DNA from: Escherichia phage HMD-6
DNA length: 64,000 bases
Sequence record: PQ505080.1
Reading direction: 5' to 3' (one strand)
Shown here: positions 41,992 to 48,299 of the stretch, one piece after another
How the letters are laid out: each line of letters begins with the position of its first letter
How positions within the stretch are numbered: the first letter of the stretch is position 1
Made by a program: the position numbers and the translations under genes
The notes under the pieces: model-generated
Told to the model about the DNA's origin: nothing
Databases searched by the model: none
What the model saw: only the letters and a program-made list of their open reading frames with translations

Positions 41992-43473
41992 TTATTTGGC
42001 GTACTCGATTAATTCTACAGTTTTCCCAAAGCTTGGGATATAATTTTTATTATACCCTTCGGTGAGAACCCATAAAGTATCGTACTTTTTCCACTTGTTG
42101 TCAACAACCTTTTGTTCAAAGTTATGCTCAAAATATAGATCGGTCAGGACGATGACATCTTTTGCATTTGGTATGTTAGCGTCCAGATACTCGAACACGC
42201 AAGCGGCTGTTGTACCCCATGTTGAGTGGACCTCGTAGTTGATCATCTCGTCGATGTTCCCGCGAGTGTATACTTTAACCTCTCCAACCTCAGTTGACCA
42301 ACAGAACATTGTAACCTTGAACTCTTTATACAGATTGCACAACCCAGTGATCTCATTGAACATTTTCTTTAAAGTTCTTTGTGAGATCGACCCAGAAACG
42401 TCTAAAGCCACCACAATATCTATAGTGTTTTCCGGATTACGACCAGGAACAACAACGTGCTGATTCTTTTTTATAGCCCCAACTTTTCGCATTGTGCTGG
42501 TCAAAGATCCAGATCGGCGACCGGGTTTTCTGTAGGTTAGTTCAGCCTTTCGTTTGGACAACATACGTTGCTTAATAATGTCTATATAATTGATTACAGG
42601 CTTACCTCTGTTCTTGACAAACTCACGCACCGCCTCTGGGCAACGACCTCCGGAAGCTTGCATTGCTGCTTCCAACATGTCACCAGAGTCCTGCATGGCT
42701 TGATCTTTATCAGATTGACTGATCACTGGCTGTGGCTGATCATACCCCATAGCCTTTCCAAGATCATCACTAGTGCCACCGTTACCACTCATGTGATCAT
42801 CGGTTTGTCGTTTATCTCCTTGAGAGTTCTCGCCTTTACCGTTCTTACTTTTACCGCTATTCTGATCTCTTTGCTTATCAAGAACCGCATAGACGTTCTC
42901 AGCAATCCATCCATGGAACCTCATGTCACAGTAGCAACTAGCTAAGAAGCCAAAAGGCTTACCTTTTACGAACTCAGTGCTTTTCCCCTTCGGGAAGAAA
43001 ACACAAGGAGGCTTGCTAAAGTCAACCACAAGACCTGTGTTGATAACGTGATCACAAGCAATATTGAACAGTTCCGGCTCAAAGCTTTTACCACGGACCA
43101 GATGATCACAGATAATATGCCCCACCTCATGTGACAGAAGAAAGGCCACCTCTTTCACAGATTTTGGGGAATAGAAAACCTCAGCCATCTCAAACTGCTT
43201 GTCAGTCAGAGATGCTTTAAGAATGGTTTTACGCTCATCTGCCAACCCCATAATGAACTCAGGGCTGTAGTAGATGCGTTTATGGTCTGTTGCCATAGTG
43301 GAGCACCATGTGTGGTTTTCTACGAACTGCAACCCTGACAACAGTGTGCCATAAAACGGCAGCTTTTCAAGAAGATACATGCGTGCTGCCTGCAGCATTC
43401 GCAAGGCGTCATCTTTTTGTGTGGCAATGATTTCTGAACTTCTGCTATCCATTAAAACTCCAGAAGGGGCCAA
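41992..43473 (-). CDS. zincin-like metallopeptidase + von Willebrand factor A domain protein
   Basis: 493 aa; HExxH motif 'LLSHEVGHIICDH' in the N-terminal half and a VWA MIDAS motif 'DIVVALDVSGSIS' in the C-terminal half. This architecture typically partners MoxR-type AAA+ ATPases. Confidence 0.6.
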   Translation of the reverse strand: MAPSGVLMDSRSSEIIATQKDDALRMLQAARMYLLEKLPFYGTLLSGLQFVENHTWCSTMATDHKRIYYSPEFIMGLADERKTILKASLTDKQFEMAEVFYSPKSVKEVAFLLSHEVGHIICDHLVRGKSFEPELFNIACDHVINTGLVVDFSKPPCVFFPKGKSTEFVKGKPFGFLASCYCDMRFHGWIAENVYAVLDKQRDQNSGKSKNGKGENSQGDKRQTDDHMSGNGGTSDDLGKAMGYDQPQPVISQSDKDQAMQDSGDMLEAAMQASGGRCPEAVREFVKNRGKPVINYIDIIKQRMLSKRKAELTYRKPGRRSGSLTSTMRKVGAIKKNQHVVVPGRNPENTIDIVVALDVSGSISQRTLKKMFNEITGLCNLYKEFKVTMFCWSTEVGEVKVYTRGNIDEMINYEVHSTWGTTAACVFEYLDANIPNAKDVIVLTDLYFEHNFEQKVVDNKWKKYDTLWVLTEGYNKNYIPSFGKTVELIEYAK

Positions 43474-43485
43474 TGGCCCCTGTCA

Positions 43486-44475
43486 TTATTTAACGTGCTT
43501 GAAAATACCAGCCAACTCGGTCATTGTCATGCGAGTGGTCTTCATAAGGTCTGTCATAGCCTTTTCCATGATTGGAGATACTACCATAAAGTTACCCTTG
43601 GTGAAACCTTTATTCCAGTCGGTCACTAATAGTGGTTTAAGTCCGACCCCGAGACGCTCACCAGTTAAAGCACAACATTTTCGAATGTACGTGCTCTTAA
43701 ATTGACTGAATGATAGATCAACTTTCATACCTGCATCGTAGAACGTCTGACAATAGAAAGTGTAAGCTTTGGCAATCTCAACATCGTCAGGCAGTGCAGG
43801 AACCTCTTCTGTGAGCTCTTCTTCGTCCCCTTGAGGCTCTTTTTCCTCTTCGTAAGCCTGTTGCGTCATCTCTTCAATCTCCTCTACTACAGGCTCGTTT
43901 ACAATGTCAGAAATGTGCTTGTTGGCTCCACGGTTAGCCATGAAGTTTTTAAAATCCTGCATTGGTGACATATCTTCCTCCCATTCTTCGTCAAAGAGTG
44001 CCAGTTTATCCTCTTCCGTCCCATATTGCAAGATGAAATCTTCAAAAGTGTAATCACCTTTCAATTTCTCCATGCGCTCTTCGCTCAGGTGGAGCATCAT
44101 CTGCTGGACAATTTTTCGATCAGTTTTGTCTTTAATCAAGATTGCGGTCTTTTTATCTACCAGGCAGTCTTTCAGAGAGTTACACCTCAATCCTACCACA
44201 CAACAGTTATCAATTGCGTAAGGACCTTCATCATCTATCCGCTCCAGAGATGGGTAGAAAGGATTCCCCAGCCCGTTTTCATCTGTGTGCATGTCGAAAG
44301 GTATAAGGGTATAGTCGCATACCCCCTCTCCTAAAAGTTTTTTACCAAATAGGAGGTATTCTTCCCATGACAGGTTGAACTCTATATCTCGTTTCCGTGC
44401 ATTATTTTGTTTGCGTCTGTATTTTTTGAGCAGGCGCTCTAACTCTTCTGGTGTATAATATTTTTCAAGATTCAT
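43486..44475 (-). CDS. first gene of leftward operon: protein with internally duplicated Cys-containing module (possible His-Me/HNH-like nuclease fold)
   Basis: Track ORF to 44541 (TTG), which lies upstream of the predicted promoter, so ATG 44475 is preferred. N-terminal module 'ARKRDIEFNLSWEEY ... PSLERIDDEGPYAIDNCCVVGLRCNSLK', an acidic linker, and a degenerate second copy 'YIRKCCALTGERLG...'. Confidence 0.45.
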   Translation of the reverse strand: MNLEKYYTPEELERLLKKYRRKQNNARKRDIEFNLSWEEYLLFGKKLLGEGVCDYTLIPFDMHTDENGLGNPFYPSLERIDDEGPYAIDNCCVVGLRCNSLKDCLVDKKTAILIKDKTDRKIVQQMMLHLSEERMEKLKGDYTFEDFILQYGTEEDKLALFDEEWEEDMSPMQDFKNFMANRGANKHISDIVNEPVVEEIEEMTQQAYEEEKEPQGDEEELTEEVPALPDDVEIAKAYTFYCQTFYDAGMKVDLSFSQFKSTYIRKCCALTGERLGVGLKPLLVTDWNKGFTKGNFMVVSPIMEKAMTDLMKTTRMTMTELAGIFKHVK

Positions 44476-44506
44476 GAGTTGTCTCTTGTGCTCTGTAGGT
44501 GGAGAA

Positions 44507-46801: not shown

Positions 46802-46845
46802 TGGGCAGGGATGGCGGCAAGGATGCTGCTTAAGGAGTAGTAGAG

Positions 46846-47115
46846 ATGTTATACCAGCAGTACGAACTTCGTGCAGAAAAAGAATTAAATTTTGACAGAG
46901 ATATTCACAGATATTATTATGGGAAAGTTAGAGGTCAAGCAAGAAAGTGTACTCCAACACTCTTTTATGCCAGCAGACGACTAGCGCCAGAAGAGGCAAC
47001 AGCAGAAAGGGTTGCATATGGCTGGAGAGTTGCGTATGATATTGACAGATCCGATGTGATGTCTGTTTTGGAAAACTTTGAAAACACTTACACACAAGTA
47101 GAGGACTTTTACTAA
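46846..47115 (+). CDS. hypothetical protein
   Basis: 89 aa, AAGGAG RBS. Confidence 0.5.
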   Translation: MLYQQYELRAEKELNFDRDIHRYYYGKVRGQARKCTPTLFYASRRLAPEEATAERVAYGWRVAYDIDRSDVMSVLENFENTYTQVEDFY

Positions 47116-48299
47116 TGTCAAGAAACGTATTCGAAAGTGGTCAAATCACTGTCCGCGAGTTGCCAGCCATTATTCAATTTGCCCAGCGTCATAACCGATC
47201 TGTCCTGATTTTAGGACCGATGGGTGTGGGGAAGAGCCAGGTGATGAAGCAGATTGCTGATAATATGTTCGGTGAGCGAGATGACAACCTGGTTGACGTG
47301 CGGCTGTCAGATAAAGATCCTGCTGACTTATCTGGACTGCCTATCCCTGTAGAGTCAGATGGAACTACACGCACAGTGTTTGCAATTCCAGAATTTTGGC
47401 CTGCAGATCCGAACTGGAGCGGAATTATCTTTCTGGATGAACTTACTCATGCAGATAACTACCTGCAGAAGGTTGCAATGCAAATTATGCTCGACAACAA
47501 GTGCGGCACCTATGCATTTCCTAAGGGCTCTGTTTTTGTAGCTGCAGGTAACCGTGCTACAGATGGTGCTGTTCTTTCAGCGCTCGAAGCCCCTCTGGCT
47601 AACCGCTTTATCATTGTAGAAGTTACAAGCAGTGCAGAGGTATTTATTGAGGACTACGCATTCCTTAATGGTGTGCACTCCTCTGTAATTGGATATCTGA
47701 AAAGAGTTCCATCAGCTATCGATAATTATGAGGCTATGGCTGAGATTAATTGTCCATCTTTTGCCACACCGCGATCTTGGGTTGCTGCATCTGACATCTT
47801 GCACGATTTTGACAGCGGTATTATTTCTGACGCTATGGCTCGTGTTCTTCTGCAAGGCGCTATCGGTCACACTGCAGCGGTAGAAATCTGGACCTACCAC
47901 ACCAAGAAACGAAACTTGCCAGAAATCGGTCGGATTATGGCAGGGGGTTGCAAAGAGTATGTAGGTCCTAAGCAGCCAGACATCTTGTGGATTCTGGGGT
48001 CTGAAGGGTGTATCGCTATTCGTAACATGATGGAAAATGCAAGTATCTCCGACGAAGATCTTGTCAGCTGTGTGGCAAACTTCCTTGATTTCCTTTGGGA
48101 AAATTTCAAGGATGAGAACCGAGACTTTGTATTCTCAGTCTTTATGGCGATGATGAAACCCAACGCCCTAGGAAATGCCTTACTTATTGGTAAAGGCCGG
48201 GACAAGATCGTTGCTCAGCTGATCAAAGCATACCCGAACCTGATGAAGATTGTAAAAGAGTTTGGTGAAGAGTTTAGCGCCATTTTAGCTAAAGCTTGA
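47115..48299 (+). CDS. AAA+ ATPase (MoxR/CbbQ-like)
   Basis: Walker A 'GPMGVGKSQ' and Walker B 'IIFLDELTHAD'; 394 aa. Confidence 0.65.
   Translation: MSRNVFESGQITVRELPAIIQFAQRHNRSVLILGPMGVGKSQVMKQIADNMFGERDDNLVDVRLSDKDPADLSGLPIPVESDGTTRTVFAIPEFWPADPNWSGIIFLDELTHADNYLQKVAMQIMLDNKCGTYAFPKGSVFVAAGNRATDGAVLSALEAPLANRFIIVEVTSSAEVFIEDYAFLNGVHSSVIGYLKRVPSAIDNYEAMAEINCPSFATPRSWVAASDILHDFDSGIISDAMARVLLQGAIGHTAAVEIWTYHTKKRNLPEIGRIMAGGCKEYVGPKQPDILWILGSEGCIAIRNMMENASISDEDLVSCVANFLDFLWENFKDENRDFVFSVFMAMMKPNALGNALLIGKGRDKIVAQLIKAYPNLMKIVKEFGEEFSAILAKA

Follow-up and report, generated by a model that had tools for sequence, protein, structure and literature searches.

The MoxR-type ATPase and the zincin–VWA protein of Escherichia phage HMD-6: a split gene pair with a putative role in counter-defence

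Within the 64,000-nucleotide stretch of record PQ505080.1 analysed here as a whole (the window), Escherichia phage HMD-6 encodes a MoxR-class AAA+ ATPase on the plus strand and, on the minus strand, a protein that combines a zincin-like metallopeptidase domain with a von Willebrand factor A (VWA) domain. The comparison of phage and bacterial loci strongly supports the view that the two genes form a real functional pair. With a probability of about 0.55, we favour the explanation that they encode subunits of one ancient and widespread module, which in this lineage would carry out an accessory, host-directed remodelling or proteolysis for counter-defence and not for morphogenesis. The architecture, the annotation and the anti-defence phenotype of the ATPase are already known, and close relatives in GenBank are labelled 'MoxR ATPase' and 'putative metallopeptidase' or 'VWA-like domain-containing protein'. 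The pair described here is a split-gene member of a functionally uncharacterised kind.

Domain composition of the two proteins

The features of the two genes on which the analysis is based are listed below.

41992–43452, minus strand: zincin–VWA gene (Pfam PF13203 and PF09967, PHROG 1314, ribosome-binding site GGAG)
42856–43452, minus strand: zincin-like metallopeptidase domain, residues 8–206 (invariant residues, helical model)
43117–43131, minus strand: HEVGH motif, residues 115–119
42766–42855, minus strand: Gly/Asp/Lys-rich linker, residues 207–236 (low model confidence)
42004–42426, minus strand: C-terminal VWA domain, residues 350–490
42388–42402, 42211–42213 and 42139–42141, minus strand: metal ion-dependent adhesion site (MIDAS) of the VWA domain, formed by D358-x-S360-x-S362, T421 and D445, respectively
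47115–48299, plus strand: MoxR-class AAA+ ATPase gene, 394 aa (PHROG 1297, AlphaFold2 (AF2) model with Foldseek search, homologue profiles)
47214–47237, plus strand: Walker A of the ATPase
47337–47384, plus strand: predicted helix-2-insert hairpin of the ATPase, residues 75–90
47436–47441, plus strand: Walker B of the ATPase, D108–E109
47550–47555 and 47604–47606, plus strand: sensor-1 N146/R147 and R164 of the ATPase, respectively

The minus-strand protein contains both DUF2201 domains of Pfam in N-to-C order, each above its gathering score: the DUF2201_N 'putative metallopeptidase' (PF13203; E=4e-28, 99.1 bits against a cut-off of 23.2) and the DUF2201 'VWA-like' domain (PF09967; E=6e-11, 42.9 bits against a cut-off of 26.4). 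It also matched PHROG 1314 with E=3e-122. The HEVGH motif at residues 115–119 and the DVSGS motif at residues 358–362 are embedded in a wider set of conserved positions, as H115, E116, H119, H124 and D141 of the zincin domain and the complete MIDAS set (D358, S360, S362, T421 and D445) were invariant in the alignment of 47 phage and bacterial sequences, and R127 of the zincin domain was also conserved. A previous reading of the same DNA, made from the letters and open reading frames (ORFs) and referred to here as the sequence-only reading, had assigned an HExxH metallopeptidase motif and a VWA MIDAS motif to this protein. These Pfam matches and invariant residues bear that assignment out.

Residue numbers of the zincin–VWA protein follow the mechanical ORF 41992–43473 of the minus strand, which starts at a TTG and gives 493 aa. 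The real start is probably the ATG at 43452, since a GGAG lies ~8 nt upstream of it, the TTG at 43473 falls inside a GC-rich hairpin and the curated relatives are annotated alike. The length of 493 aa given by the sequence-only reading is thus to be replaced by a probable 486 aa, for which 7 is subtracted from each residue number.

The zincin domain was modelled as a confident helical structure with a predicted local distance difference test score (pLDDT) of >90. Its profile matches in PDB went no further than the level of the motif (selecase MJ1213 with E=0.04, and BepA and HtpX of family M48). The linker was modelled with a pLDDT <50 for residues 212–235, and its length and composition vary across the family. 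The fold of the VWA domain matched NorD, the MIDAS domain of Midasin, BchD and BatB.

The plus-strand ORF 47115–48299 encodes 394 aa. The Walker A sequence GPMGVGKS (residues 34–41), D108–E109, N146/R147, R164 (NRF) and R220 (PRSW) were invariant in 51 homologues; the arginine-finger and sensor-2 assignments were made by position only. Direct searches of Pfam, NCBIfam and PDB sequences with the ATPase gave only P-loop-level or sub-threshold matches. The protein itself stayed below every Pfam threshold (AAA_5 at 17.7 bits against 22, bpMoxR at 15.6 against 27), so that homologue profiles and a fold search had to be used to classify it. The homologues at 33–36% identity carry AAA_3, AAA_5 and bpMoxR, with the thresholds of AAA_3 and AAA_5 passed. 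The top PDB match of the family profile was Midasin (E=9e-12), and PHROG 1297 was matched with E=1.5e-109. When the AF2 model of the ATPase (pLDDT 84.5) was searched with Foldseek, the best 13 matches were all NorQ or CbbQ2. The model predicts the helix-2-insert hairpin as strands 75–81 and 84–90 between β2 and β3, and a pre-sensor-1 hairpin as short strands at residues 129–134 before β4; an extra helical C-terminal region of ~120 aa follows after residue ~270. By predicted fold and by profile, the ATPase groups with the MoxR ATPases NorQ, CbbQ and Midasin, which is firmer ground than the reading of motifs. The MoxR-type assignment of the sequence-only reading therefore stands. The check by profile searches that it had proposed succeeded for the DUF2201 domains, while for the ATPase the direct matches remained sub-threshold and the MoxR class was reached through its homologues.

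The family of the zincin–VWA protein is large, comprising 14,839 clusters at 50% identity with an E of 1e-30 or better. The PHROG of this DUF2201 family, PHROG 1314, carries the label 'HNH endonuclease', and the label has been copied to many GenBank and RefSeq phage records, among them CR9 gp127, N4-like phages, PBS1 and Atu_ph07; it also stands on the gene at L146:8989-10542 of our set. Other records name the family 'anti-sigma factor' or 'DNA repair ATPase'. As the proteins have no HNH signature, the label is a misannotation, and the present analysis corrects this widespread error. An 819-aa family member (P0145) was considered as an ATPase–VWA fusion and rejected, because it has only N-terminal and linker extensions.

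Linkage of the two genes and their separation in Vequintavirinae

For the survey of viral loci, three alignments of DUF2201 subfamilies were used instead of the broad family alignment A1, which was too divergent for locus searches. Of the 137 loci fetched in this way, ~129 hold an ATPase homologue, and outside the close Vequintavirinae the ATPase gene lies almost always directly upstream of the zincin–VWA gene on the same strand. In a large uncultured phage, the nearest homologue of the ATPase outside the subfamily is encoded 69–84 bp upstream of a gene for a DUF2201_N+DUF2201 protein. The same order was found in an N4-like roseophage (ATPase E=4e-18, 27% identity) and in the bacterium Sulfurivermis (E=2e-37, 32% identity), and adjacency on the same strand was also seen in Certrevirus CR9 and in jumbo phages. 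Among 80 gammaproteobacterial genomes, the operon was present in all 76 loci with enough upstream sequence.

The counts of the two genes were compared by genus label across a cultured-phage collection of 50,697 records and were near one-for-one: the ATPase and the zincin–VWA gene numbered 213/213 in Escherichia, 26/26 in Pectobacterium, 17/17 in Cronobacter and 16/16 in Campylobacter-labelled phages. The inference that the two proteins are partners, drawn earlier from general knowledge of MoxR ATPases, is upheld by the same-strand adjacency in nearly all other loci, by these matching counts and by the co-divergence described below. It should be noted that the 16 'Campylobacter phage' records (MG0656xx, host C. 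jejuni) are 93–98% identical to E. coli Vequintaviruses across the region; their host labels are probably wrong, or the phages are contaminants of the propagation culture.

The 6.3-kb region of the window is 93–97% identical to that of >100 rV5/FV3-like E. coli myoviruses (Vequintavirus). Here the zincin–VWA gene (minus strand) does not follow the ATPase gene (plus strand) directly, and 3.6 kb separate the two genes on opposite strands. The sole sizeable intergenic gap, 44476–44617, stands between them and adjoins neither. Thus, the placement of the genes on either side of a divergent promoter region, as proposed in the sequence-only reading, is right as to the opposite sides; the genes do not flank that region directly, being the second gene of the leftward arm (zincin–VWA) and the seventh of the rightward arm (ATPase). 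All 20 close relatives, with VWA identities of 39–98%, show the same split, with the genes on opposite strands, 3.4–5.1 kb apart, across the strand switch. Because the gene order and not the protein differs, we regard the split as a variant arrangement and not as a reason for exclusion from the DUF2201 family. Certrevirus CR9 and its relatives, also members of the subfamily Vequintavirinae, still have the two genes side by side on a single arm, indicating that the rearrangement happened inside this subfamily.

The two proteins diverge in parallel in the 20 split loci, from 98–99% down to 39–43% identity (Spearman 0.74), and all catalytic and MIDAS residues of the zincin–VWA protein persist throughout the split lineage, to as low as 39% identity. 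The parallel divergence together with the intact functional residues argues for continued joint selection.

Fitness phenotypes of the Bas54 orthologues and readings of the function

Transposon data on the Vequintavirus Bas54 have been published in the HIDEN-SEQ preprint (Humolli et al. 2025, bioRxiv 10.1101/2025.11.20.689424). Bas54 is the phage MaxBurger (MZ501093), and its gene layout is identical to that of the window. The ATPase is 98% identical to bas54_0063 and the zincin–VWA protein 98% identical to bas54_0055. On E. coli K-12, both genes are non-essential, with 60/64 and 81/86 TA sites hit (~94%; supplementary table, 10.1101/2025.11.20.689424), while the structural and assembly genes of Bas54 took zero insertions. 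This dispensability argues strongly against a role of the pair in virion assembly in this lineage.

When K-12 was compared with the uropathogenic strain CFE311, the ATPase insertions were fully lost (log2 fold change (log2FC) −7.23, q=0) and those in the metallopeptidase–VWA gene bas54_0055 were depleted (log2FC −2.20, p=0.0009, q=0.009; 10.1101/2025.11.20.689424). Since the neighbouring genes (0053, 0054, 0056–0062 and 0064) were unaffected on CFE311, polarity is an unlikely cause of either depletion. Among the cloned systems tested, bas54_0063, named there a 'MoxR ATPase', was 'specifically required to overcome DS-28', a two-gene DefenseFinder system of CFE311 (10.1101/2025.11.20.689424). 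Unlike the present analysis, the preprint treats bas54_0063 by itself, pairs it with bas54_0140 as the two anti-DS-28 genes and passes over the depletion of bas54_0055 without comment. We found no counterpart of bas54_0140 in the window. Sheets S6 and S7 of Extended Data Table 8 are the same, as 'resampling_K-12_vs_CFE303' duplicates the command line and the numbers of CFE311; the file lacks the true results for CFE303, which is thus unusable as a second-host specificity control. A further conditionally essential gene of the same early arm is the helicase bas54_0068 (from ~52434 onward in the window, downstream of rIIB), which is non-essential on K-12 and has a log2FC of −6.32 (q=0) on CFE311.

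These data lend direct genetic support to the earlier suggestion of counter-defence as far as the ATPase is concerned; for the zincin–VWA partner, the support is weaker and tentative. The accompanying remark that what these pairs do in phages has not been established is partly outdated by this preprint and by the work of Iyer et al. (2021, Viruses 13:63, PMC7824862), who described the same architecture, a MoxR ATPase with a vWA co-chaperone bearing an N-terminal metallopeptidase, in the group 2.2 jumbo phages. Homologues of both window proteins were detected in this ~350-kb jumbo group (Serratia BF, Yersinia fHe-Yen9 and Klebsiella KP13-7), with E values of 1e-32 to 1e-45. The jumbo genes are adjacent, whereas those of the window are split across the divergent promoter region and have dispensable orthologues with a counter-defence phenotype. 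Both window proteins are also homologous to gp24 (AAA ATPase) and gp25 (vWFA) of phage N4 (the zincin–VWA protein against gp25: tblastn E=2e-13), two of the 14 core genes of N4-like phages, located downstream of RNAPII and of unknown function. In contrast to the window pair, gp24 and gp25 are adjacent, belong to the middle genes and are universal in their family, and they share ~21–27% identity with the window proteins.

By structure, the ATPase comes closest to NorQ–NorD and CbbQ–CbbO. The VWA domain of NorD matches the domain at the C-terminus of the window protein, which has the layout of a NorD/CbbO-type partner, namely an N-domain, a flexible linker and a C-terminal VWA domain. Unlike NorQ–NorD, an iron-insertion chaperone of cNOR, and CbbQ–CbbO, a Rubisco activase, the window pair has a zincin peptidase as its N-domain and a compact VWA domain, and its ATPase carries the additional C-terminal helical region; its target, as far as known, is not a metalloenzyme. 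In the cryo-electron microscopy structure of NorQD, the VWA finger is located in the ATPase pore, the C-terminus touches the post-sensor-1 loop, and the N-domain and linker are remodelled; MoxR ATPases, where tested, need the VWA partner for target remodelling (PMC13036017). The combination of MoxR and VWA proteins, with ATP-driven remodelling of a MIDAS-bound client, also links the pair to p618/p892 of Acidianus two-tailed virus (ATV), RavA–ViaA and Midasin/Rea1 (PMC7159879). Those systems differ in having no fused peptidase, and they serve tail development, the maturation of respiratory complexes and ribosome biogenesis, respectively.

The explanation that we favour can be put as follows. 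The ancestral form would have been an operon of the ATPase gene followed by the VWA gene, as in bacteria, N4-like phages (gp24/gp25), jumbo phages and many uncultured phages. In the Vequintavirinae, the zincin–VWA gene would have moved to the opposite arm of a divergent early promoter region that is probably served by the host RNA polymerase, with both genes retained after the split and their co-evolution continued. By analogy with NorQ–NorD, CbbQ–CbbO and Midasin, a hexameric ring of the ATPase would be expected, with the VWA domain docked on its helix-2-insert face and the MIDAS holding an acidic residue of the target. ATP-driven rotation would then twist or stretch the adaptor (the linker and the N-domain) against the MIDAS-held target, and the fused zincin, having an intact HExxH and catalytic Glu, could cleave what is exposed. 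In this lineage, the ATPase is needed for the escape from DS-28, the zincin–VWA partner would contribute more weakly, and the product of bas54_0140 might act in some relation to both. A more specific version is offered only tentatively, namely that the MoxR ring and the zincin–VWA adaptor constitute an AAA+-powered counter-defence protease in which the MIDAS captures an acidic residue of a host immune protein (e.g., DS-28A/DS-28B), the ATPase opens it and the zincin cuts it. If this were true, there would be a large unrecognised class of phage machines that destroy host proteins in an ATP-dependent manner, with bacterial counterparts of related function, since homologues belong to the core genes of N4-like phages and are also known from jumbo phages and from ~14,800 protein clusters.

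Several points weigh against the favoured explanation. We know of no demonstrated interaction, ATPase activity or protease activity for any member of the family. The zincin domain has no close solved homologue, its putative activity being read from the conservation of motifs, and the compact VWA model shows no obvious long 'finger' of the NorD type. The early timing of both genes is likewise putative. The depletion of the zincin–VWA gene is ~4.6-fold, compared with the complete loss of the ATPase, and was seen on the whole clinical strain CFE311 and not with cloned DS-28, for which the authors' second gene is bas54_0140 and not the zincin–VWA gene. Moreover, the core status of the pair in N4-like phages fits a basic role in the life cycle better than a strain-specific anti-defence one. 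Finally, in an uncultured Vequintavirinae-like lineage, the zincin–VWA gene L014:9995-11515 has no ATPase gene within 10 kb, and a 58%-identical ATPase, encoded at L232:10001-11194 directly after tail genes, likewise lacks a VWA gene within that distance. The lineage may have a third, fully dispersed arrangement, in which the genes of a putative common genome are >10 kb apart. The 413-aa ORF upstream in L014 was tested as a divergent ATPase and rejected.

The main rival explanation, which we consider unlikely, is that the two genes became decoupled after the split, the ATPase acting against DS-28 by itself or jointly with a second phage protein (the 99-aa product of bas54_0140, for example), and the role of the zincin–VWA protein being separate or vestigial, depleted on CFE311 through a different host factor. 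The authors' choice of counter-genes and the wide gap between the log2FC values of −7.23 and −2.20 fit this explanation, as do the location of the genes in different transcription units and the presence of other defence systems, e.g., Gao_Tmn, in CFE311. A vestigial protein, however, would not be expected from the retention of the catalytic and MIDAS residues, and decoupling is further opposed by the constant co-occurrence and co-divergence of the two genes, by the significant depletion of the zincin–VWA gene on the same host and by the need of MoxR ATPases, where tested, for a VWA partner (PMC13036017). The pair might instead perform a general task of host takeover or housekeeping, such as the remodelling or degradation of a protein linked to replication or nucleotide metabolism, and the DS-28 phenotype would then be indirect, because an altered infection programme triggers DS-28 or fails to outrun it. 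The middle-gene and core status of gp24/gp25 speaks for this, and so does the neighbourhood of the pair in N4-like and uncultured phages, where dCTP deaminase, ThyX/ThyA and 5'-3' exonuclease genes are found. The operon is also spread over the ~14,800 clusters, including those of free-living bacteria with no phage context, and the helicase bas54_0068 is likewise conditionally essential on CFE311. We nevertheless think this rather unlikely, since both genes tolerate insertions at ~94% of their TA sites with no fitness cost on K-12, and the knockout phenotype of the ATPase is, according to the authors, specific to DS-28 among the cloned systems.

For the jumbo pair, Iyer et al. proposed a role in virion assembly or processing by analogy with the ATV MoxR/VWA proteins p618/p892 (PMC7824862), and the detection of homologues in that group makes an assembly chaperone with a maturation protease conceivable here as well. 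Such a role is improbable in view of the high transposon saturation at which both Bas54 genes proved non-essential; in addition, the window genes belong to a putative early region, with rIIA/rIIB and small ORFs of early type as neighbours and the morphogenesis modules a long way off, and in N4 the homologues are expressed as middle and not late genes. Hardly any weight is given to the idea that the pair has an auxiliary metabolic function resembling that of the metal chelatases CobS/CobT or BchI/BchD and would insert a metal into a host or phage enzyme. Although the fold of the VWA domain matches BchD, the N-domain of the partner is a zincin peptidase with a catalytic Glu and not that of CobT, NorD or BchD; the Pfam and NCBIfam scans returned no chelatase family, and the neighbourhood holds no cofactor-pathway genes.

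Among AAA+ systems whose clients are unknown, MoxR–VWA pairs are some of the commonest, and in the zincin-fused branch of DUF2201 no member has been characterised. In Vequintavirus, this branch is now experimentally tractable, as the genes are dispensable on K-12 and a single cloned defence system of two genes brings out a clean conditional phenotype. From the comparison of loci it can be added that another part of the genome encodes what looks like an obligate partner of the ATPase, which makes bas54_0055 relevant alongside bas54_0063.

Transcription signals and neighbouring genes

The following features of the region concern transcription.

44476–44617: divergent intergenic region with back-to-back sigma70-like promoters (consensus matches)
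43465–43481, minus strand: GC-rich perfect hairpin GGGGCC-ATT-GGCCCC, in the 33-nt spacer that separates the 'anti-sigma-like' gene upstream from the zincin–VWA start
46892–46920, plus strand: sigma70-like match TTGACA-17-TATTAT, 11/12 consensus, possible internal promoter

The likely true starts at the gap are the ATG at 44475 (minus strand) and the ATG at 44618 (plus strand), which leave 142 bp between them. The rightward sigma70-like promoter, TTGACT-17-TATAGT at 44549–44577, and the leftward one, TTGACA-17-TAAGAT with an extended TG at 44535–44507, each match the consensus at 10/12 positions. In relatives down to 39% protein identity, the strand switch retains a gap of 130–143 bp with a 10–11/12 promoter. 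Meanwhile, the whole region has 18 promoter matches against a shuffled expectation of 12.4 ± 3.4, which is not significantly higher. The gap promoters, as matches to the consensus, are consistent with divergent early transcription by the host RNA polymerase. The expectation of the sequence-only reading that both genes are expressed from the onset of infection stays putative: it draws on such consensus matches in a gap of conserved position, and the N4 homologues are middle genes. Our literature search on Vequintavirus transcriptomics, DS-28 biology and the essentiality of N4 gp24/gp25 yielded nothing usable.

The best sigma70-like match of the region, at 46892–46920, lies inside the small ORF 46846–47115, ~195 nt upstream of the ATPase gene. 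Judging from its match to the consensus, it may serve as an internal promoter, through which the ATPase gene would have a transcription input of its own. On the other arm, the hairpin at 43465–43481 might attenuate or stabilise the transcript entering the zincin–VWA gene, and it could modulate read-through or translation of this gene relative to the gene upstream.

The GC skew reverses at ~36–44 kb. The leftward arm consists of small ORFs up to the strand switch, and the rightward arm continues through small ORFs to the ATPase, a SleB-like cell-wall hydrolase, rIIA, rIIB and the helicase. The neighbourhood looks like an early or host-interaction region. As the PADLOC defence models gave no meaningful match for either the ATPase or the zincin–VWA protein, the pair is not a misplaced defence system.

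The first gene of the rightward arm (44618–45517, plus strand) is labelled 'putative alpha-1,3-fucosyltransferase' in relatives; this label looks unsupported, the gene having no Pfam, NCBIfam or PADLOC match and belonging to phrog_12338 of unknown function. Between the ATPase gene and rIIA lies the SleB-type cell-wall hydrolase (48739–49239, plus strand; Pfam Hydrolase_2, E=3e-19), which has an N-terminal signal-like hydrophobic segment. The early arm just 5' of rIIA is an odd place for a lysis-type enzyme. The first gene of the leftward arm (43486–44475, minus strand; PHROG 3118) is labelled 'anti-sigma factor' or 'HNH endonuclease' and has no Pfam match. Its N-terminus gave weak PHROG matches to Srd anti-sigma, 'decoy of host sigma70' and endonuclease VII (E 1e-9 to 1e-13), and its orthologue bas54_0056 is non-essential, with 55/55 TA sites hit.

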